DNA of 64,000 nucleotides from Mustelus asterias (taxonomy: Eukaryota), in contig NC_135806.1 of the NCBI RefSeq assembly GCF_964213995.1, forward strand, positions 108,252,001 through 108,316,000. The letters run 5' to 3'. Position numbers and translations under genes: made by a program. The notes under the pieces were generated by a model, which was given only the letters and a program-made list of their open reading frames with translations, did no database searches and was not told the origin of the DNA. The stretch's first letter is position 1; every line of letters starts with the position of its first letter. This document shows positions 27,290-62,400 of this stretch, in pieces.

Positions 27290-30200
27290 TAATACTAGAC
27301 AGGTCAGGCAAGAGCAGGACAGAGAGCAAGGGAAGTCTAGATTAAACTGCGTTTATTTCAATGCAAGAGGCCTCACGAGCAAGGCAGATGAACTCAGGGC
27401 ATGGATGTGTATATGGGACTGGGATATTATAGCTATTACTGAAACATGGCTAAGGAGCGACAGGACTGACAGCTTAATGTTCCAGGATACAGATGCTATA
27501 CGAAGGAAAGAACAGGAGGTAAGAGAGGAGGGAGAGTTGTGTTTTTGATTAGAGAGAACCTCACGGCAGTACTGAGAGGGGATATTTCTGAGGGTTCGCC
27601 CACTGTGTCTATATGGGTAGAACTGAGAAATAAGAAGGGGAGGGAGCACTTTGATAGGGTTGTACTATAGGCCACCAAATAGTCAGCGGGAAATTGAGGA
27701 GCAAATCTGTAAGGAGATTACAGATAGCTCCAAGAAAAATAGGATGATAGGGGATTTTAACTTTCCCAAAATTGACTGGGACAGCCATAGTATTAGGGGC
27801 TTGGATGGAGAGAAATTTGTTGAGTGTATTCAGGAGGAATTTCTCATTCAGTATGTGGATGGCTCGACTAGAGAGGGGGCAAAACTTGACCTCCTCGTGG
27901 GAAATAAGGAAGGGCAGGTGACAGAAATGTTAGTGAGGGATCACTTTGGGACCAGTGACCCTAATTCCATTAATTTTAAGATAGCTATGGAGAATGATAG
28001 GTCTGGCCCAAAAGTTAAAATTCTAAATTGGGGCAAGGCCAATTTTGATGGTATCAGGCAGGAACTTTTAAAAGTTGATTGGGGGAGTCTGTTGGCAGGC
28101 AAAGGGACATCTAGTAAGAGGGAGGCTTTCAAAAGTGTGTTAACCAGTGTTCAGGGTAAGCACGTTCCTTTTAGAATGAAGGGCAAGGCTGGTGGAAGTA
28201 GGGAACCCTGGATGACTCGGGATATTGAGGCCCTGGTCAAGAAGAAGAAGGAGGCATATGATATGCATAGGCAGCTGGGATCAAGTGGATCCCTTAAAGA
28301 GTATAGAGGGTAAAGGAATAGAGTTAAGAGAGAAATCAGGAGGGCAAAAAGGGGACATGAGATTGCTTTGGCAGATAAAGCAAAGGAGAATCCAAAGAGA
28401 TTCTACAAATATATAAAAGGGAAAAGAGTAACTAGGGAGAGAGTAGGGCCTCTTAAGGATCAACAACGTCATCAACGTGTGGAGCCACAAGAGATGGGTG
28501 AGATCCTAAATGAATATTTCTCATCAGTATTTACTGTTGAGAAAGGCATGGATGTTAGGGAACTTAGGGAAATAAATAGTGATGTCTTGAGGTGTGTACA
28601 TATTACAGAGAAGGTGGTACTGGAAATCTTAAAGTGCATTAAGGTAGATAAATCCCCGGGACCTGCTGAAATGTATCCCAGGACGTTGTGGGAAGCTAGG
28701 GAGGAAATTGCGGGTTCTCTAGCAGAGATATTAGAATCATCGACAGCCACAGGTGAGGTGCCTGAAGATTAGAGGGTGACAAATGTTGTGCCTTTGTTTA
28801 AGAAGGGCTGCAGGGAAAAGCCTGGGAACTACAGGCCGGTGAGCCTAACGTCTGTGGTGGGTAAGTTGTAAGAAGGTATTCTGAGACTCAGGATCTACAG
28901 TCACGTAGAGAGGCAAGGACTAATTAGGGACAGTCAGCATGGTTTTGTGAGTGAGAAATCATGTTTCACGAATTTGAGATTTTTGAAGAGGTAACCAAGA
29001 AGGTAGATGAGGGCAGTGTAGTTGATGTTGTCTACATGGACTTTAGCAAGGCCTTTGACAAGGTACCGCATGGTAGGTTGTTGCATAAGGTTAAATCTCA
29101 CAGGATCCAGGGTGAGGTAGCCAAATCGATACAAAATTGGCTTGACGACAGAACACAGAGGGTGGTTGTCGAGGGTTGTTTTTCAAACTGGAGGCCTGTG
29201 ACCAGTGGTGTGCCTCAGGGATCGGTACTGGGTCCACTGTTATTTGTCATTTATATTAATGATTTGGATGGGAATTTAAGAGACATGGTTAGTAAGTTTG
29301 CAGATGACACCAAGATTGGTGGCATAATGGACAGTGAAGAAAGTTATCTCCGATTGCAACGGAATCTTGATCAATTGGGCCAGTGGGCTGACGAATGGCA
29401 GATGGAGTTTAATTTAGACAAATGCGAGGTGATGCATTTTGGTAGATTGAACCAGGGCAGGACTTACTCAGTTAATGGTAGGGCGTTGAGGAGAGTTACA
29501 GAACAAAGAGATCATGGGGTACAGGTTCATAGCTCCTTGAAAGTGGTGTCACAGGTGGACAGAGTGGTGAAGAAGGCATTCGGCATGCTTGGTTTTATTG
29601 GTCAGAACATTGAATACAGGAGTTGGGACGTCTTGTTGAAGTTGTACAAGACATTGGTAAGGCCACACTTGGAATACTGTGTACAGTTCTGGTCACCCTG
29701 CTATAGAAAGTATATTATTAAACTCGAAAGAATGCAGAAAAGATTTACTGGGATGTTACCGGGACTTGGTGGTTTGAGTTATAAGGAGAGGCTGGACAGA
29801 CTGGGACTTTTTTGCCTGGAGCATAGGAGGCATAGGGATGATCTTATAGCGGTCTATAAAATAATGAGGTGCATAGATCAAGTAGTTAGTTAACATCTTT
29901 TCCCAAAGGTAGGGGAGTCTAAAACTAGAGGGCATAGGTTTAAGGTGAGAGTAGAGAGATACAAAAGGGTCCAGGGGCAATTTTTTCACACACAGGGTGG
30001 TGAGTGTCTGGAACGAGTTTCCAGAGGTAGTAGTAGGGTACGATTTTGTCTTTTAAAAAGCATTTAGACAGTTACATGGGTAAGATTGGTAAAGAGGGAT
30101 ATGGGCCAAATGCGGGCAATTGGGACTAGCTTAATGGTAAAAACTGGGTGGCATGGATAAGTTGGGCGAAGGGCCTGTTTCCATGCTGTAAACCTCTAGG
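27290..30200 (+). mobile_element. CR1 ORF2 (APE endonuclease + RT) with stops and frameshifts
   Basis: CVYFNARG, GLYYRPP, GDFNFP, KSPGP, GVPQGSVLGP and FADD motifs across ORFs 27651, 28368 and 28961. Confidence 0.93.
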
Positions 30201-49499: not shown

Positions 49500-50191
49500 A
49501 CAGTAAGAAGTTTAACAACACCAGGTTAAAGTCCAACAGGTTTATTTGGTAGCAAAAGCCACACAAGCTTTCGGAGCCCCAAACCCCTTCTTCAGGTGAG
49601 TGGGAATTCTGTTCACAAACAGGGCATATAAAGACACAAACTCAATTTACATGAATAATGGTTGGAATGCGAATACTTACAGCTAATCAAGTCTTTAAGA
49701 TACAAACAATGTGAGTGGAGAGAGCATCAAGACAGGCTAAAGAGATGTGTATTGTCTCCAGACAGGACAGCCAGTGAAACTCTGCAGGTCCAGGCAGGCT
49801 GTGGGGATTACAAATAGTGTGACATGAACCCAATATCCCGGTTGAGGCCGTTCTCATGTGTGCGGAACTTGGCTATCAGTTCCTGCTCAGCGACTCTGCG
49901 CCATCGTGTGTCGTGAAGGCCTGTCTTGATGCTCTCTCCACTCACATTGTTTGTATCTTAAAGACTTGATTAGCTGTAAGTATTCGCATTCCAACCATTA
50001 TTCATGTAAATTGAGTCTGTGTCTTTATATGCCCTGTTTGTGAACAGAATTCCCACTCACCTGAAGAAGGGGCTTGAAGCTCCAAAAGCTTGTTGTGGCT
50101 TTTGCTACCTAATAAACCTGTTGGACTTTAACCTGGTGTTGTTAAACTTCTTACTGTGTTTACCCCAGTCCAACGCTGGCATCTACACATC
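49500..50191. mobile_element. Penelope-like element: 3' fragment plus inverted pLTR
   Basis: About 235-bp inverted arms (49500-49737 / 49919-50157); minus-strand peptide LHDTRWRRVAEQELIAKFRTHENGLNRDIGFMSHYL* (GIY-YIG C-terminus); one-sided tail of about 34 nt; 13-bp TSD TGTCTTTGTAATT. Confidence 0.88.
49559..49603 (-). ncRNA. Minimal hammerhead ribozyme motif in Penelope pLTR
   Basis: Minus CCACTCAC-CTGAAGA-AGGGGTTTGGGGCTCC-GAAA-GCT-T-GTGTGG; the plus-strand partner at 50053-50098 has GAAA mutated to AAAA. Confidence 0.7.
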
Positions 50192-51418
50192 GTGTCTTTG
50201 TAATTGCCAGTTTTCATCTACACAACTTCTAATTTCGCAAACTTAGATATACAGCTCCTTATTCTTTAATCCAAATCTTTGATATAAATGTTGAATAACT
50301 GAAGCTTCTGGACAGATCCATGAGGAACGCCAATTGCCCCATCCCGCCAACTCGAGTAAATTTCCTTTATCCCTCCTCCATGTCTCCAACTCCCAATCAA
50401 TCCCCAATCCATGTCAAATGATTACTTCCAATTCTTTTATTTTTGCTCATCTTCTCTTCAGTGGAAGCTTATTGTGTCTTCTGGAAGTTGATACAGACAA
50501 TCAAGACACTTCTCTATCAACAATGTCGGTGACCATCTCAAACAATTCTAGCTGCATTATTTGGACAATGTTGGTGTAAGACCACTATGCTTTAGCTGAT
50601 TGTTAAACTGCCAAAGCAAAGCAAATTGTAAAGGGGCATAATGTTTGTGATATTATATGTCAGCTTTGCAGCAAGCGAAAGGCAAGGTAGGATGAGATCT
50701 GAACAGTGGGTTGTAACAAACAATAAAGTACGAGATGGAATGCATGTTTCCTATTAGGACAAAAAAAATGTGATATTAACTTTTATTTCAATGGAAAAAT
50801 GTGCAGGAAAAGAAACATGGAAAAAATTAAGGTATGTTTTTAAAAAAATGAACAAACACATTGTTCTTTGCAAAATACTGCTACGAGAGAAAATTGGCTA
50901 GGGTTCATATTCCTGATTGCTATCCAGTGTCCTGTTTGAGGAATATACATGTGTGAGAGAGGACAATGGGTGAGTGTAAGTTCATTTCCAACTAATACTG
51001 TTAGCACTCGCTGTTTAAATGTAGAAACAAAAATGATTATTCAGGTAAGATATCCATTGTTAAAACTGAATCCCATTGTGAAGTCAACAGGAGAGAAAGA
51101 GGAAAGGAGAAAATAAATGATTTCAGTAAAGTGCATAGGACGCTCATAGGAGTTCATAGGACGCTCAAAGCAGCTGTGCAGGTTGAGGCTGTGGTTAAGA
51201 AGGCGTATGGTGTACTGGCCTTCATCAATCGAGGAACTGAGTTTAGGAGTTGTGAGATAATGTTGCAGTTATATAAGACCCTGGTCAGACCACACTTGGA
51301 GTACTGTGCTCAGTTCTGGTCGCCTCATTACAGGAAGGATGTGAAAGCCATAGAAAGGGTGCAGAGGAGATTTACAAGGATGTTGCCTGGGTTGGGGAGC
51401 ATGCCTTATGAGGATAGG

Positions 51419-54400
51419 GAGGGCTTTATTTTCATAGACCAATGGGAGGTTTTCAGGAGAGGATGGCACCTGTACAAGAGGGAGGGGTCACAACTAAGTT
51501 GGAAGGGTACAAATATCCTGGCTGGGAGCTTTGCTAATGCAGTTCGGGGGGGTTTAAACTAGTATGGCAGGGGGGTGGGGATCAAACTATTAGGTCTATA
51601 AGTGTGGTGGCTGGGGACGAGCTTGGGGCTGGGACAAGGCTGGCAAAGAAGAAGAGCACTCTGGGGGAGGACGACCTCACTGAGCCTGGGGGTCTGGAGT
51701 GCTTATACTTCAATGCAAGGAGCGTAGCAGGTAAAACAGACGAACTTGGGGCCTTAATGCGCACGAGGAATTTGGATGTGGTTGCGGTGACGGAGACTTG
51801 GTTGAAAGAGGGACAGGACTGGCAGCTGAATATTCCAGGGTACAAGTGTTTTAGGCGAGACAGAGGAGGGGCCAAAAGAGGTGGGGGAGTAGCGGTATTG
51901 GTTGGAGAGCATATTACAGCGGTGCAGAGGGAGGACAATTCGGAGGAGTCGTGTAGCGAGTCACTCTGGGTGGAGCTTAGAAACAGGAAAGGCGCAGTCA
52001 CTATGTTGGGGGTGTACTACAGGCCCCCCAACAGCCCAAGGGAAGTGGAAGAATGGATATGTCAGGAGATACTGGATAGGTGCAGGAAATATAGGGTTGT
52101 TGTAGTGGGAGACTTCAATTTCCCTGGTATAGACTGGAAATCGCTGAGGGCAGGGACTCTGGATGGTGAGGCATTTGTAAAATGTGTACAGGAGGGTTCG
52201 TTGGAACAATATGTGGACAGCCCAACTAGAGAGGGGGCTATACTGGACCTGGTGCTGGGGAATGAGCCCGGTCAGGTCTTCAAAGTTTTGGTCGGGGAAC
52301 ATGTGGCAAATAGTGACCACAATTCTGTTAGCTTTAGGATAGTGATGGAAAAGGATGAGTGGTGTCCCAAGGGTAAGGTGTTGGATTGGGGGAAGGCTAA
52401 CTTTATTGGGATCAGGCAGAAATTGGCAGCTCTTGATTGGGAGAGGCTGTTTGAGGGTAAATCCACATCTGGTATGTGGCAGTCTTTTAAGGAACGGTTG
52501 TTAGGGCTACAGGACAAGCATGTGCCTGTAAAAAAGAAGGATAGGAAGGGTAGGATTAGAGAACCGTGGATAACCAGGGAAATTGAGGGACTGGTCAAAA
52601 GGAAAAGAGAGGCGTATGTTAGGTCCAAGCAGCTAAAAACGGAGGGAGCTCTGGAGGAGTATAATGAAAGTAGGAAAATACTCAAACGGGGAATTAGAAG
52701 AGCAAAAAGGGGTCACGAAATGTTCTTGGCAGACAGGATTAAGGAGAATCCCAAGGCATTTTATTCATACGTTAGGAACAAAAGGGTTGTAAGGGAAAAA
52801 ATCGGACCTCTCAGGGACAAAAGTGGGGACTTATGCTTGGAGCCCAAAGAGGTAGGGGAGATCCTAAATGAATACTTTGCGTCGGTATTCACTAAGGAGA
52901 GGGATGTGTTGACTGGGAGTGTCTCGGAGGGGAGTGTTGAACCGTTGGAGAAAATCTCCATTACAAAGGAGGAAGTGTTAGGTTTGTTAGAGAATATAAA
53001 GACTGACAAATCCCCAGGGCCTGATGGAATCTATCCAAGGCTGCTCAGGGAGACGAGAGGTGAAATAGTTGGGCCTCTGACGCAAATCTTTGTCTCGTCA
53101 CTGGACACAGGTGAGGTCCCAGAGGATTGGAGGATAGCCAATGTGGTCCCGTTATTTAAGAAGGGTAGGAAGGATAACCCGGGTAATTATAGGCCGGTGA
53201 GCTTGACGTCCGTGGTGGGGAAGTTGTTGGAGAAGATTCTTAAAGATAGGATGTATGCGCATTTAGAAAGGAATAAACTCATTAACGATAGTCAACATGG
53301 TTTTGTGAGAGGGAGGTCATGCCTCACGAACCTGGTGGTGTTTTTTGAAGAAGTGACCAAAATGGTTGACGAAGGAAGGGCCGTGGATGTTGTCTATATG
53401 GACTTTAGTAAAGCATTTGACAAAGTCCCTCATGGTAGGCTAGTGAAAAAGGTTGGATCCCATGGGATAAAGGGGGAGCTGGCTAGATGGGTGGAGAACT
53501 GGCTTGGTCATAGAAGACAGAGGGTGGTAGTGGAAGGGTCTTTTTCCGGCTGGAGGCCTGTGACTAGTGGTGTACCGCAGGGCTCTGTATTGGGACCTCT
53601 GCTGTTTGTGATTTATATAAATGATCTGGAAGAAGGAGTAACTGGGGTGATCAGTAAGTTTGCGGACGACACAAAACTGGCAGGACTTGCAGATAGTGAG
53701 GAACATTGTCAAAGGCTACAGAAGGATATAGATAGGCTGGAAATTTGGGCAAGGAAATGGCAGATGGAGTTCAATCCTGATAAATGCGAAGTGATGCATT
53801 TTGGTGGGAATAATGTAGGGAGGAGCTACACGATAAATGGAAGAACCATAAAGGGTGTAGAGACGCAGAGGGACCTGGGTGTGCAAGTCCACAGATCTTT
53901 GAAGGTGACGTCACAGGTGGAGAAGGTGGTGAAGAAGGCATATGGCATGCTTGCCTTTATAGGACGGGGCATAGAGTATAAGAGTTGGGGTCTGATGTTG
54001 CAGATGTATAGAACGTTGGTTCGGCCGCATTTGGAATACTGCGTCCAGTTCTGGTCGCCACACTACCAGAAGGACGTGGAGGCTTTGGAGAGAGTACAGA
54101 GGAGGTTTACCAGGATGTTGCCTGGTATGGAGGGGCTTGGTTATGAGGAGAGATTGGGGAAACTGGGGTTGTTCTCCTTGGAACGACGGAGGATGAGGGG
54201 AGACTTAATAGAGGTGTATAAAATTATGAAAGGCATAGATAGGGTGAACGGTGGGAAGCTTTTCCCCGGGTCGGTGGTGACGTTCACGAGGGGTCATAGG
54301 TTCAAGGTGAAGGGGGGGAGGTTTAACACAGATATCAGAAGGACATATTTCACACAGAGGGTCGTGGGGGCCTGGAATGTGTTGCCGGGCAAGGTGGTGG

Positions 54401-55032
54401 AGGCGGACACACTGGGAACGTTTAAGACTTATCTAGACAGCTATATGAACGGAGTGGGAATGGAGGGATACAAAAGAGTGGTCTAGTTTGGACCAGGGAG
54501 CGGCGCGGGCTAATTGTTCCTTGTTTCTCGTTTCAAGGCTTCATTCTACGATCATCTTGCTGGTGCCAGTACAGAGTGAGACTGCGGATAGTTGGGAACC
54601 TGTCTCGGGGGCAGGGAATTCATATGGTGTTCGTGGAAGTGGAAATGACTAGGGTTGGGAAGCATTTTCCGATCGGGGCCATTGTGATCTCCTGGACTCG
54701 TTTCGATCGCCTCAGGGGGTCGGAGAGGAATTTCCCAGATTTTTTTTTCCCCATATTGGCCCTGGGGTTTTTCACTCTGGGTTTTCGCCTCTCCCTGGAG
54801 ATCACATGGTCTGGAATGGGGGGGTGGGGGTAAGTTAATAGGTTGTAATGAACAAAGCATCGTAGCTGTGAGGGACAGCTCGGTGGATAGGATATTGGTA
54901 TGTAGATAGGCTGGAAAATTGGGCGGGGATCCTGGATTCAGGATTCAATCCTGGACCGGGGAGCGGCGCGGGCTTGGAGGGCCGAAGGGCCTGTTCCTGT
55001 GCTGTATTGTTCTTTGTTCTTTGTTGTTCTTT
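51419..55032 (+). mobile_element. Young CR1 LINE, 5'-truncated within ORF1, ORF2 intact
   Basis: ORF1 tail (SGNH esterase-like ...LYKREGSQLSWKGTNILAGSFANAVRGGLN*), ORF2, long 3' UTR, (TGTTCTT)n tail, 6-bp TSD. Confidence 0.95.
51604..54486 (+). CDS. CR1 ORF2: APE endonuclease + reverse transcriptase (frame open from 51538; true start undetermined)
   Basis: CLYFNARS, VTETW, YYRPP, GDFNFP, LDLVL, SDH (APE); KSPGPDG, NYRPVSL, QHGF, DFSKAFD, GVPQGSVLGP, FADD (RT); no stops over 960 codons. Confidence 0.95.
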   Translation: MVAGDELGAGTRLAKKKSTLGEDDLTEPGGLECLYFNARSVAGKTDELGALMRTRNLDVVAVTETWLKEGQDWQLNIPGYKCFRRDRGGAKRGGGVAVLVGEHITAVQREDNSEESCSESLWVELRNRKGAVTMLGVYYRPPNSPREVEEWICQEILDRCRKYRVVVVGDFNFPGIDWKSLRAGTLDGEAFVKCVQEGSLEQYVDSPTREGAILDLVLGNEPGQVFKVLVGEHVANSDHNSVSFRIVMEKDEWCPKGKVLDWGKANFIGIRQKLAALDWERLFEGKSTSGMWQSFKERLLGLQDKHVPVKKKDRKGRIREPWITREIEGLVKRKREAYVRSKQLKTEGALEEYNESRKILKRGIRRAKRGHEMFLADRIKENPKAFYSYVRNKRVVREKIGPLRDKSGDLCLEPKEVGEILNEYFASVFTKERDVLTGSVSEGSVEPLEKISITKEEVLGLLENIKTDKSPGPDGIYPRLLRETRGEIVGPLTQIFVSSLDTGEVPEDWRIANVVPLFKKGRKDNPGNYRPVSLTSVVGKLLEKILKDRMYAHLERNKLINDSQHGFVRGRSCLTNLVVFFEEVTKMVDEGRAVDVVYMDFSKAFDKVPHGRLVKKVGSHGIKGELARWVENWLGHRRQRVVVEGSFSGWRPVTSGVPQGSVLGPLLFVIYINDLEEGVTGVISKFADDTKLAGLADSEEHCQRLQKDIDRLEIWARKWQMEFNPDKCEVMHFGGNNVGRSYTINGRTIKGVETQRDLGVQVHRSLKVTSQVEKVVKKAYGMLAFIGRGIEYKSWGLMLQMYRTLVRPHLEYCVQFWSPHYQKDVEALERVQRRFTRMLPGMEGLGYEERLGKLGLFSLERRRMRGDLIEVYKIMKGIDRVNGGKLFPGSVVTFTRGHRFKVKGGRFNTDIRRTYFTQRVVGAWNVLPGKVVEADTLGTFKTYLDSYMNGVGMEGYKRVV

Positions 55033-56029
55033 GATAGGTTGAGTGAGCTCGGCCTTTTCTCCTTGGAGAGACGAAGGATGAGGGGTGACCTGATAGAGGT
55101 GTATAAGATGTTGAGAGGTATTGATCGAGTGGATAGTCAGAGGCTTTTTCCCAGGGCTGAAATGGTTGCCACAAGAGGACACAGGTTTTAGGTGCTGGGG
55201 AGTAGGTACAGAGGAGATGTCAGGGATAAGTTTTTCACTCAGAGGGTCGTGGGTGCGTGGAATGGGCTGCCAGCAACGGTGGTGGAGGTGGACTCTTAAA
55301 AGACTTTTAGATAAGTACATGGAACTTAGTAAGATAGAGGTTATAGGTAAGCCTAGTAATCGCTAAGGTAGGGACATGTTCGGCACAACTTTGTGGGCTG
55401 AAGGGCCTGTATTGTGCTGTAGTTTTTCTATGTTTCTAAGTTTCTAAGTGCGCTGGTAAATGTTTCCTTTTAATCCTTATAGCTTATCAACTATATCAAT
55501 AAGTGCAGTTGAATTTGCCACTGTGTAATAGTAGTTGAAATGTTTGCTGTATAAAAATAGACGTAAAAAATTAAAAATGAAGTTTAATCCATTTCATTTT
55601 CAGACCACATAGGAACAAGCACTTCAAATGAATGTGAAAGGGGATGTGCTCCCTGAAACAACTGAGTAAGAGTACATGCCTTTAAAACGGAACTGTACGC
55701 AACCCAGAAAAGTTGAGGTGAAACTTTCTATATGATTAAGAGAGCACCTAATTCCATGTTCCAAGGAGACCACTCATTTAACAATTGTTTTATGTGCTGA
55801 GTTTAGTTTGCTGGCAGTGTTAGTTCTGTGCCCCCCTGAATAGAGTGAAACAGCATTTCTTATTTCCCTTATGTCCCCTGAACACTCTGGGCACACTCAT
55901 CCTCTGGAATTTAAAGTACCACAAAACATAAAGGCAAGTATCTGCTGCAGTCAAAAGGGCATGTGTCACCATATTCTAAAGCCTATAATCCAAACTGATT
56001 TGAGTGTAGCACCTAGGCAATGGTACATA

Positions 56030-58440: not shown

Positions 58441-58958
58441 TTAAAAAGTCCTTGCAGAAAGTTTTGTTTGTGCTGTAGGGAAGAGTTTAAACTAGCCTGG
58501 CGGAGGTTGGAATCCTGAAAATACATTCAGAAAGGAGAGAAGAGTTGGAATGGAAGGCAGAAAATTAGTAAATGTTTTTGGAAGGCAGAGGGAACAGGTT
58601 AGAAAATAAACAAGTCAGTTTGGCAGTGCTAAATAGTGTCCTTCATTACAAGAAATCTACAGAATAAGGCGAATAAACAGAGAGCACAGATTGCCACATG
58701 AGTAAAAAATACCTAGAACAGAGACACAGCGAGACAGAAAATTTGATGGACTATTTAAAGGTCTGCTGACCTCGCGGGGGGGAGGGATTTCCAGTCTCAG
58801 GGTGGGCATGACTGGAAAATCCCACTCATAGTTGAAAGAAGAGAAGGAATGGCAGCTCAACATTCCTGGTTATTGATTTTCAGGTGACATAGGGAGGGAG
58901 TTAGGTTGCAATATCGATTGAAAAAGCAATTATAGCTGTGAAGAAGGCTAGTATGGTA

Positions 58959-59286: not shown

Positions 59287-59423
59287 TGATGTGGAGATGC
59301 CGGCGTTGGACTGGGGTAAACACAGTAAGAAGTTTAACAACACCAGGTTAAAGTCCAACAGGTTTATTTGCTACCAAATAAACCTGTTGGACTTTAACCT
59401 GGTGTTGTTAAACTTCTTACTGT
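59287..59423. mobile_element. Short Penelope-derived palindrome with one-sided tail
   Basis: Perfect arms of about 48 bp; TGTAGTAAACCC duplicated at 59275-59286 / 59421-59432. Confidence 0.8.
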
Positions 59424-62400
59424 AGTAAACCCAACAGGAGAGGGAACGATTTTGGACTGTTTTCAGGATCACAAATGGATCAGTGGAATGGAGTGGCAGG
59501 TTGAACGGTTAAAGAAAAAGGGTGAGACTGACAAATACATAAATAATGTCAAGCATTTTAAAGGGGAGGATTCAGCAAAGAAGGGGAACTTAGGACAGAG
59601 ATAGAGGTCTAGAAAACCTATAGGTGTATATAAAGTATAGGGGGGAAAATTAGAAAGGAAAGCAAAGAGAGGAGATGAAAATACATTGGCAAGGAAAATC
59701 CCATAGGGAATTTTTTTTAAATATGGAAAGAAGAGGATAACTACAGTAAGAGTCAGGACTATTGGGAACATAAGGGTGTGTGGAGATGGGTTATAAATGG
59801 TATGGTTCTAAATGAATACAGTGTATCTGTTCTCACAAAAGAGAGGGATGATATAAACAGGGGATAGGAGTTTGATGAGATTAACATTGTGAGGGAGGAA
59901 CTGTGAAAGGGTTTAACATCTTTGAAAGTGAATGCTCCCAAGCCAGGACAAAATTCATCCTCGCCTGTTAAGGGAAGAAAAAGAAGAAATAATAAGGCTC
60001 TGGTATTCATTTCCAATCTTCCATCATGTTCCAAGTCAGACGAAGGGTCATCCAGACTCGAGACATTCGCTCTATTCTCTCTCCACAGATGCTGTTAGAT
60101 GTGCTGGGTTTCACCAGCATTTTCTGTTTTTGTTTCAGATTCCAGCATCCGCAGTATTTTGCCTTTATGATGTTCCAATCTTCTCTGGCTATAGGTGTGC
60201 TACCAGAGGTCTGGAGGACAGCTAATGTTGTACCATTGTTTAAAAAGGTCAAAATGAGTAGACTGAGAATTACAGGTCAGTCAGCCCAATCTTGATGATG
60301 GGAAAATTATTGAAAATTTATAGAGATGAGATGAGATAAATCTTCATTTAAAAGGACACAGATTTATCAAAGTCAGCCAGCACGGTTTAAGGGAAGGTCA
60401 TTGCTGCCTGAATGATTGAGTATTTTGAGGACAGAACAAGTAGGTTCAATGAGGATAATGCATTTGATGTCGTCTATATAAATTTTAGCAAGGCTTTTGA
60501 TGAGGTTGCAAATGACATGAAAGTAAAATTCCATGGCATGTAAGGCAAAATGGCAAATTGGATCCAAATCTGGCTCAGATGCAGGAAGAAAAAGGTCATT
60601 GTGAATGGGTGTTTCAGTGACTGTTTTCAGGACTTTGGACTTGAATGTAGGTGGTATGATTAAGCAGTTTGTAGACCATAGAAACACTAACTGTGTGGCT
60701 GATAATGAAGAAGGAAACTTTAAATTGGAAGAAGATATTAATGGACTAGTCAGGTGGGGCGAAGAGTGGCAAATGAGCTCGATTTGGAGGCGTGTGAGGG
60801 AATGCATTAGGGGAAGACTAACAAGGCAAGTGAATGCACAATAAGTTGTAGGCTACTGAGAAACATAGAGGAATGGAAGGATCTTGGTGTCAATGCCCCT
60901 GAGTTCTGAAGGTAGTTGGACAGATAGATAAGGTGGCCAAGAAGGCCTTTATTAGCTGAGGCATAGAGTATAAGAACTGGGAGATTCTCCAACTGTAAAA
61001 CACTAGTTAGGTCACAGCTGGAGTACTACGTGCAGTTCTGGTCACCACACGATAGGAAAGATGTGATTGTACTCGGAAGGGTACGAAGGAGATTTATGAA
61101 GATGTTACCTAGATTGGAGAATTTCAGTTATGAGAAAAGATTGGATAGGCTAGGATTGTTCTCTCTGGGACAGAGAAGACTGACAGGAGACCTAATTGAA
61201 GCGCATAAAATGATGAGAGCTATAGATAGCATGGATTAGAATGCCCCATTCCCCTTGATTGAGGGAATCGAAGGGTGTAGATTTAGGATAGGAAGTAAGA
61301 GTTGAGAGGGGATTGGGGGGAAATCTTTTCACCCAGGGGAAGTTGCTGCCTGAAAGAGCTGGAGAGGCAGAAACCATCAGAAAAGTACATGGGTATGCAC
61401 TTGAAGTTGTCTAATTTATATGACTACAGACCAAGTGCTGGGTGGCTACCTGTCAGCCAGTGCAAACATGATGGGCCAAATGCCTCCTTTTGTGCTAGAG
61501 ATTTCTATGTTTCCTATGACAACCCAAACTCAATCCTGTCCTCACCGAATAACCACTGGATCGTGACCAAGAACAGAAGTCACGGCAGACTTTTCTTTTC
61601 CTTGAATTCAAGACTGCCAGGGCCGAAAGTAAAATTCTTACTCTCATCCCAGCTGAGATCAGCCAATTCAGCACAGGAATGACACATGGTCTCTTTCTGC
61701 TCAATGTGGTTCACTTACTCCCTGACTAAAATCACCAAGCCATCAAAAGAATTGCCATATTTTGTGTGTACTACTAAAAACATGTTCTAAAGTGAATATA
61801 TATGCATGTTCTCCGCTAGTGAAGCAACGTTAATTGTCTGTAGTTTATTAGAGAGCCTGATAAAAATGGACAATGCTGGAATAATAGGCATCATTTTTCT
61901 TTGTTGGAGAATAATGATGATTACTTATTCTTGAATAATATGTAACAGAATGAAGCACAGATAATTTTCACACACAGGAACTTGTGAAGAGGATGTGAGT
62001 ACCTCACATTTTTCTGGTTTCAGTCTCATGTCTCTATCCACACAAAGTGGGAGAAACAGAAAGAAGTTGTGGGAATTCAGACAACATTTTTGACTAGATT
62101 TACAGTAGTATTGCAAACAATCTGAGAGCGTTCACACGAGAAACAGCTAACCATATGCTTAAGGAATAGAAATTAATCATTTCAAAGTGGCGTGTGGTTT
62201 GATGCTTCCAAGTTTGCACAGTAAATATTCCCAAATGACAACATTTTTGAAGAAAAAATAACCATTTTATTTATTGGAATCATTATTTACTAAATGAATT
62301 GCGGTCCATACTTTAAAGACTCAATGGCAATTATCAAAAACGATTTGGCAAATATTTCTGTATTCGGAGATTGAGGATATTTATGAGTGCTATGGAACAA

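Follow-up and report, generated by a model that had tools for sequence, protein, structure and literature searches.

The window examined here is a 64,000-nucleotide (nt) stretch of the Mustelus asterias genome (contig NC_135806.1, positions 108,252,001 to 108,316,000, forward strand), and it carries a young retrotransposon with a pair of open reading frames (ORFs) that overlap. We take this long interspersed nuclear element (LINE) to be a CR1, from its likeness by eye to the CR1 alignments in the supplement of PMC4316615. Spanning 51419-55032, the young element lacks its 5' part and sits inside an older CR1 copy into which it inserted (Table 1). The left part of the host (51146-51424) aligns with ORF2 residues 782-874 at 70% identity by tblastn, and the host reading ...PYEDR / DRLSELGLF... 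is unbroken across the insertion. Contigs of four of the 24 listed runs were aligned to 51380-51800 (1589, 625, 13 and 1174 contigs), and their loose ends past 51418 enter host reverse transcriptase (RT) sequence in all four runs, while those before 51416 give upstream ORF1 sequence in two (X1 and X5).

The ORF1 tail of the insertion resembles the C-terminus of a stingray SGNH/GDSL protein, P0224 (53% identity over 45 amino acids (aa), E 3e-16), which carries PF13472; the 47-aa tail alone has no Pfam match, and its identity to the bird-type ORF1 of L014, one of the loci surveyed below, is 33%. A first, sequence-only reading of this DNA had taken the frame ending at 51562 for ORF1. The tail at 51419-51559 is genuine ORF1, while the rest of the 185-codon frame is RT of the older CR1 that shares the frame by chance, and we reject this apparent ORF1 as a chimera of the host RT fragment and the 47-codon tail. 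With neither an ORF1 start nor an intact esterase, the window copy is unable to make a fusion of esterase, endonuclease and RT, and it is a fossil of the signal described here.

ORF2 encodes an apurinic/apyrimidinic-type endonuclease (APE; PF03372 from residue 57, and PF14529), which starts at 51700, and an RT (PF00078, residues 545-773). The ORF1 frame closes on a slippery heptamer of the X_XXY_YYZ type, U_UUA_AAC, with the stop directly behind it, and the -1 frame at this point is ORF2, in whose 982 codons no canonical heptamer stands in frame. The first in-frame ATG of ORF2, at 51757 (residue 74), lies inside the endonuclease and downstream of the APE motif CLYFNARS (51700-51723). A match to human L1 endonuclease structures begins 17 residues before this ATG, so that a protein begun there would miss the stretch aligned to residues 14-30 of the L1 chain and lose the first conserved motif, the carrier of an active-site Asn. 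The nearer ATG, at 51564, is read in the third frame, where its ORF runs for nine codons. Heptamer, register, overlapping second heptamer, open -1 frame, the positions of both ATGs and the G-rich tract 6 nt past the heptamer had all been put forward in the sequence-only reading, and all are borne out.

Table 1. Features of the young CR1 insertion, its host copy and a second CR1 junction, in window positions
Feature	Position	Strand	Basis or remark
Older CR1 copy, left part (RT C-terminal fragment), insertion target	51146..51418	+	tblastn
Left target-site duplication GATAGG	51413..51418	+	same hexamer at 55033-55038
Last 47 ORF1 codons and stop, SGNH/GDSL esterase C-terminus, ending ...GGLN*	51419..51562	+	similarity to P0224
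ORF2 stop-to-stop frame, 982 codons, -1 relative to ORF1	51538..54486	+	
Second canonical heptamer G_GGU_UUA, overlapping the first, family-specific	51550..51556	+	sequence
Slippery U_UUA_AAC in the frame of ORF1, where the -1 shift is predicted	51553..51559	+	sequence
AUG-less linker, 47 codons, -1 frame, shift site to endonuclease	51559..51699	+	open frame
ORF1 stop TAG directly 3' of heptamer; candidate stimulator by slow termination	51560..51562	+	
G-rich tract, 6 nt past heptamer; candidate stimulator	51566..51580	+	also codes W-Q-G-G-G-D in -1 frame
3' untranslated region (UTR) closing with short GTTCTTT-type tandem repeats, without poly(A)	54487..55032	+	sequence
Right target-site duplication (55033-55038) and older host CR1 resuming	55033..55311	+	tblastn of ORF2 residues 867-963
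Heptamer and stop where ORF1 and ORF2 meet in a second CR1, heavily decayed	58486..58495	+	ORF2 remnants to ~61290

Slippery heptamers at the junctions of CR1-like loci

CR1-like loci were collected blind to the junction, by scanning metagenome contigs with an alignment of 18 ORF2 proteins and a single pattern for the APE domain. This alignment-based scan confirmed 248 loci, and the 80 best of them are the whole sample. These CR1-like elements derive from host DNA and show 27-41% identity; vertebrates are thinly sampled (six amniote-like loci). An upstream ORF of at least 100 codons could be placed in 61 of the 80, and relative to it ORF2 lies in the -1 frame in 54, in the +1 frame in six and in the same frame in one. 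The overlap holds a canonical in-frame heptamer in 36 of the 54 -1 loci, where 3.2 are expected from the rate upstream in the same ORF1s (21 in 13,945 codons), and with relaxed first triplets (GGA, GGU, GUU) the count is 43 loci against 7.1 expected. Heptamer matches number 37 in register and 8 in each of the two wrong registers. Clustering at 60% APE identity gives 33 groups, 26 of which have a canonical site, so that relatedness fails to explain the enrichment.

U_UUA_AAC itself is present in 12 of the 80 loci, from eight clusters at 70% identity. L006, the one same-frame case, is interrupted by a premature stop. It shows TTTAAAC-TAG in the -1 register, as do six of the 19 loci without a placeable ORF1 (L005, L008, L032, L045, L047, L068); two more of the unplaced loci (L021, L074) have G_GAA_AAC. 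The same survey yielded no usable locus in viral contigs and three loci in genome contigs, one without the junction, one decayed (L082) and one a short match.

The ORF1s next to these sites are of different kinds. Among 40 of the 61 that were scanned, 15 match GDSL esterase families and 13 match PHD. The PHD-type ORF1s overlap ORF2 by 58-283 nt, with A_AAA_AAC, G_GAA_AAC, G_GGA_AAC or G_GGG_GA(C/A) as the site, and they offer a control at the codon level. When their C-termini are aligned, a conserved K-N column reads NNA AAA AAC in 19 of the 20 loci in which the -1 frame is open at this point, and in none of the 19 in which it is closed. Among the closed loci, L009 encodes the same K-N-L as the non-slippery CTA AAG AAC. 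The sole exception among the open loci, L077, has lost the site and gained a new A_AAA_AAC a few codons upstream, and L036 and L035 have new sites elsewhere. In the remaining PHD loci, the site falls in a second column nearer the stop, and the -1 frame opens 0-14 codons before it.

In the PHD-type group, the three codon positions of the slip site are fixed in 15 of 15 lineages (<70% identity), whereas all 36 other conserved columns use at least two codons. Opening a short way upstream of the site, the -1 frame then runs without a stop for the 22-117 codons to the APE domain. In the homologous, untranslated -1 frame, stops make up 9.7% of codons (86 of 885), and at this rate 45 open codons would arise by chance about 1% of the time; the open group is free of stops by definition. 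Taken together, codon usage and frame retention indicate that selection acts on two things, the nucleotides of the slippery heptamer and the -1 frame that follows it, a constraint beyond that on the amino acids. To our knowledge, no mechanism besides -1 frameshifting predicts both.

Esterase-type ORF1s mostly end in U_UUA_AAC and a stop, or in U_UUU_UUA, one codon and a stop. The APE-domain tree, a quick tree built without named reference elements and used for grouping only, leaves out loci with fewer than 150 APE residues (such as L068 and L069) and places five loci with duck and turtle proteins (support 95). L068 joins these amniote-like loci through its ORF1 tail, and the ORF1 of L014 is 98% identical to a penguin protein. 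Esterase-type ORF1s are also seen outside the vertebrate groups of the tree (L001, L003, L004, L013, L016, L022, L024, L026, L029, L046, L069), while PMC4120745 gives this ORF1 type in vertebrate subgroups alone.

When the six amniote-like loci and two window copies are aligned, TTTAAACT is invariant in all eight vertebrate-type junctions, whose flanks diverge to a mean column identity of 65%. Kept throughout are the heptamer, the register it stands in and a stop right behind it, which is TAG or TGA in the other loci. The overlapping heptamer G_GGU_UUA, present in the young window copy, is absent from the second window copy and all six amniote-like loci, and we reject it as a conserved shift site: it is specific to the family. 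Of 120 ORF1 homologues, whose hosts are birds, turtles, a snake and a stingray, 73 have a Leu-Asn C-terminus, and FKL is what the -1 frame gives in gene models from a stingray, a stork and a crane; L-N-stop in one frame with F-K-L in the other implies T TTA AA(C/T) T. A search for natural single-ORF fusions of esterase, APE and RT gave just gene models that join the two frames, perhaps through introns or from broken copies, and these are not used as support.

Variation within the young family was read from the contigs of the four runs. Among the 40 of 59 variants available, none falls at 51550-51561, and tallies by type rule out changes within AAAC (run X12) and within AAA (X1), with three T changes per run unplaced. 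Five synonymous variants are listed in the ORF1 tail upstream. The ORF1 stop varies from stop to stop alone (TAG to TAA, at 20-48% of contig depth in the four runs), the ATG at 51564 reads GTG at 9-23% of depth in three of the four, and no indel at the junction reaches 3% of contigs in any. None of the nine variants listed at 51562-51690 creates a stop in the ORF2 frame, and we see no in-frame ATG before the APE motif in the window copy or the contigs. Diverged subfamilies, visible as loose ends, align solely at about 51543-51579, which is the heptamer, the stop and the G-rich tract.

Probable programmed -1 frameshifting and its alternatives

From the anatomy of the junction, its conservation and the constraint on its codons, we infer that in full-length members of the family the ORF2 protein is probably made fused to that of ORF1, through programmed -1 frameshifting. 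The sequence-only reading had proposed such an esterase-APE-RT fusion for the element in the window; conservation and codon constraint support the proposal for the family, and it fails for the truncated window copy. Two conditions that the sequence-only reading had set for its own refutation, an unconserved heptamer and an in-frame ATG ahead of the APE domain in the subfamily, did not hold. Most ribosomes would end ORF1 at the UAG. In a minority, tRNA-Leu on UUA and tRNA-Asn on AAC would re-pair one base back, on UUU AAA, and reading would resume at CUA GUA UGG to give ...GGLN/LVWQGGGD..., or ...GGL/KLVWQ... if the slip preceded the decoding of AAC. With tandem slippage, UUA has been read as Leu before the slip, which makes the junction peptide G-F-K suggested earlier unlikely. 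Downstream of the shift would follow the 47-residue linker, the endonuclease and the RT. Such a shift would fix a high ratio of ORF1 protein to fusion and would tether the enzyme to the ORF1 protein coat, as in gag-pol.

The alternative that fares best is termination-reinitiation, in which ribosomes would stop at the ORF1 UAG and restart at a nearby AUG or non-AUG codon in the ORF2 frame to make a separate ORF2 protein. We regard it as improbable for this family. The ORF1 stop is indeed located at the junction, near-cognate codons are available in the linker (ATT at 51589, ATA at 51598, GTG at 51604 and 51607, CTG at 51640), and there are precedents in other LINEs, with AUG-independent initiation of L1 ORF2 and a UAAUG stop-start in SART1 (PMC5009743, PMC3708506, PMC3894237). 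Reinitiation leaves unexplained why slippery codons are fixed and relocate, and why the -1 frame is open at least 45 codons before the ORF1 stop in the long-overlap group. Moreover, no start codon is kept at the junction, which reads CTA or CTG followed by W, S, M or D, and in the window copy the stop-adjacent ATG at 51564 is out of frame and polymorphic, for which reason we reject it as a restart site. We also considered UGGGA before the stop, which we take to be a calicivirus-like reinitiation motif, and rejected it, as it occurs here and in just two of seven other junctions.

Some amniote elements complicate this picture. An upstream in-frame ATG is absent from the window's own family and present in three of the six amniote-like loci (L005, L006, L068), 2 nt past the stop, a position that reinitiation could use; in some amniote lineages, reinitiation may coexist with frameshifting or act alone. 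This is one of several observations that weigh against frameshifting as the general explanation. Of the 54 -1 loci, 34 lack an in-frame ATG before the APE motif and 19 possess one, while in one the motif was not located. The six +1 loci are a second such point. Four of them (L049, L050, L064, L067) form one PHD-type family without the heptamer, which may use another mechanism, while L002 and L079 look broken. As a side note, the four-member family consists of two near-identical pairs on a long branch.

A third point is that 11 of the 54 -1 loci have neither a canonical nor a relaxed heptamer. L043 has no site, and ten of the 11 have G_GGG_GA(C/A) at the homologous column. In these ten loci (L011, L012, L015, L017, L018, L020, L023, L025, L027, L031), G_GGG_GA(C/A) replaces the G_GAA_AAC or G_GGA_AAC of relatives in the same column; it always follows a codon ending in G (TCG in eight of ten), and the -1 frame opens 2-14 codons upstream. 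On this pattern, G_GGG_GA(C/A) is a possible new type of -1 shift site. A metagenome contig of repeat DNA may be a mosaic of several copies, which belongs to the same side of the balance, as does the fact that the invariance of the site within the young family is weak evidence, because few synonymous sites vary and 19 of the 59 variants were unseen. The folding results given below add to it as well.

Another alternative holds that the heptamer is a by-product of protein constraint, with an ORF1 protein that must end in Leu-Asn and an ORF2 expressed through an internal promoter, internal ribosome entry or splicing. The frequency of the Leu-Asn end among ORF1 homologues is what it would predict, and gene predictors do join ORF1 to ORF2 here, possibly through an intron. 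Its codons would, however, be free to vary: in esterase-type ORF1s, TTA accounts for 24% of Leu codons, AAC for 35% of Asn codons and T for 28% of third positions, and all eight vertebrate-type junctions nonetheless read T TTA AAC. The F-L, K-N, E-N and G-N of other lineages also spell slippery heptamers. As for splicing, one contig alone skips the junction, and the skipped segment has ends GG..GG, not splice signals. By these codon controls, protein constraint is already contradicted, and we consider it very unlikely. Least likely of all is transcriptional slippage, by which a polymerase adding one base in a T or A run would bring ORF1 and ORF2 into frame in some mRNAs: two of the site types do hold runs of six T or six A, but U_UUA_AAC, G_GAA_AAC and G_GGA_AAC have no long run, and the +1 insertions expected in the genome are missing at the threshold of 3% of contigs in the four runs.

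If the junction is a programmed -1 shift site, a stimulator would be expected nearby. No stable fold is predicted after the window site (z -0.24 to -0.80) by pseudoknot-free folding, and neither the stretches upstream and downstream of it in the window nor the second copy fold above shuffles. Consensus folding of the eight vertebrate-type junctions gives no shared pairs, and mean z values are -0.33 at 14 U_UUA_AAC sites and -0.37 at 21 A_AAA_AAC sites; at the latter, stable folds are not enriched, with 4 of 21 downstream and 3 of 21 upstream. Three related U_UUA_AAC loci have a short stem 6 nt past the site, without two-sided changes.

The U_UUU_UUA loci behave differently, in that four of seven have a hairpin with z < -2 and none of seven does in the upstream and distant controls. 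The four (L003, L004, L046, L069) have in common a GC-rich hairpin with a variable loop, 11-40 nt after the site, at z -2.0 to -4.4. Within the folding model, this hairpin is a candidate for a classical stimulator.

For the vertebrate type, the adjacent stop would be the most likely stimulator. Pea enation mosaic virus depends on a stop located 3 nt past its shift site (PMC5009743), and the distance of the stop tunes frameshifting in SARS-CoV-2 (PMC8168617). The G-rich tract is a second candidate. By G-run score it ranks among the top 0.1% of ORF2 windows in this element and the top 0-2.5% in the six amniote-like loci, and the tract is enriched in seven of the seven intact vertebrate-type junctions scored. 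It has two long runs alone and also codes for conserved glycines. G-quadruplexes stimulate frameshifting in synthetic constructs, their natural use being unknown but expected as of 2016 (PMC5009743). We consider a helper role for the tract possible, with the odds somewhat against it.

A broader version of frameshifting can be formulated, which we offer tentatively and hold to be rather less likely than its negation. In this version, -1 frameshifting would be ancestral and clade-wide in CR1, from invertebrate-type elements to those of sharks, turtles and birds, and would have persisted across swaps of esterase and PHD ORF1s with the site moving along ORF1; the ORF2 protein would act mainly as an uncleaved fusion, and the vertebrate shift would be driven by the adjacent stop together with a G-rich stimulator of the G-quadruplex type.

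Comparison with known systems and other features of the window

The nearest parallel among LINEs is that of the Dictyostelium elements TRE5-A and TRE3-A, for which a review figure legend states that a -1 frameshift is required for ORF2 (PMC5911963). These L1-clade, APE-type non-LTR (non-long-terminal-repeat) elements resemble CR1 in having two overlapping ORFs with APE and RT in ORF2. CR1 belongs to another clade and other hosts, and it differs in its esterase- or PHD-type ORF1, its defined heptamers and their codon-level conservation in many lineages.

In gag-pol and in coronavirus 1a/1b, as here, an X_XXY_YYZ heptamer ends the first ORF and the polymerase ORF follows in the -1 frame; coronaviruses have the same U_UUA_AAC with a 0-frame stop nearby (PMC8168617). 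CR1 is a non-LTR element, unlike either, and has its stop directly after the heptamer. The three Pfam matches of the window ORF2 include no protease family, and thus none to cut a fusion as in gag-pol. Coronaviruses also have a three-stem pseudoknot, whereas no hairpin is predicted at the vertebrate-type CR1 site. Mammalian L1 and silkworm SART1 share with CR1 a bicistronic LINE RNA and a scarce ORF2 protein with APE and RT from the same transcript, but their ORFs are separated by a spacer (L1) or joined by UAAUG (SART1), while those of CR1 overlap in -1, mostly lack an AUG and have a conserved heptamer. Within CR1, the element resembles vertebrate subgroup 7 with ORF1 type IVB (Metcalfe and Casane 2014, PMC4120745), which has the same esterase-ended ORF1, APE and RT, tandem 3' repeats and 5' truncation.

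No report of frameshifting in CR1 was found in open-access full texts, and the idea may be held in subscription articles, CR1 papers from before 2005 or Repbase reports, which lay outside this search. The word "frameshift" is absent from the main text of PMC3708506, PMC4120745, PMC3894237 and the esterase structure paper. CR1 is likewise unmentioned in the first 300,000 of the 449,034 characters of PMC5009743, which treats L1 as a case of unconventional initiation. A junction motif was found in none of six supplementary files of PMC7140322, and the searchable files of PMC4316615 matched the RT C-terminal region alone. For LINEs of Paramecium, +1 shifting, reinitiation or readthrough has been suggested (PMC5405496), and translation of LINE ORF2 has been called an open question (PMC3708506, PMC3894237), its worked examples being reinitiation in SART1 and L1 and 2A skipping. 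What is new here is the predicted recoding signal, of a known mechanism, in a LINE clade for which we found no such report.

CR1 is the dominant repeat of bird genomes, at 11.8% of the chicken model chromosomes (PMC11835228). If our reading is correct, a major LINE clade uses the gag-pol strategy, with ORF1 and ORF2 fused in its enzyme. Annotations that begin ORF2 at its first ATG would then be truncated or mis-started, and mobilising an intact CR1 in culture would demand that no nucleotide of the junction be altered. Standard reporters could also test dozens of natural eukaryotic -1 sites, including hairpin-less sites and the non-canonical G_GGG_GA(C/A).

The signal has one other trace in the window. 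TTTAAACTAG has two exact matches there, the junction and the one in the second, heavily decayed CR1 (Table 1), where the -1 frame reads FKLAW in place of FKLVW. At least 15 more CR1 ORF2 fragments lie at 7830-61290 on both strands, among them a long decayed CR1 copy at 27342-30102 that is truncated just upstream of the APE motif, and there are nested short repeats around 49500-50190 and 59290-59425.

The closest named proteins come from Scyliorhinus, Xenopus, Anas and Pelodiscus, and also from rays, which points to DNA of cartilaginous-fish type. The closest ORF2 homologue, P0001 (65% identity), is annotated as Carnobacterium maltaromaticum on a 3-kb contig and is most likely host contamination of a bacterial assembly. 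In the ORF1 tail, positions 51482-51496 read E/D-G-S-Q-L where relatives have D-G-L-H-L, and three bird-like loci likewise lack the His, which we presume to be a catalytic residue of the esterase. Judging from these substitutions, several vertebrate lineages may have an esterase without catalytic activity. Finally, in the long 3' UTR a GC-rich stretch of 22 nt recurs as a near-duplicate (at about 54491 and 54954). Unrelated sequence separates the two copies, possibly the product of an internal insertion or a template jump.

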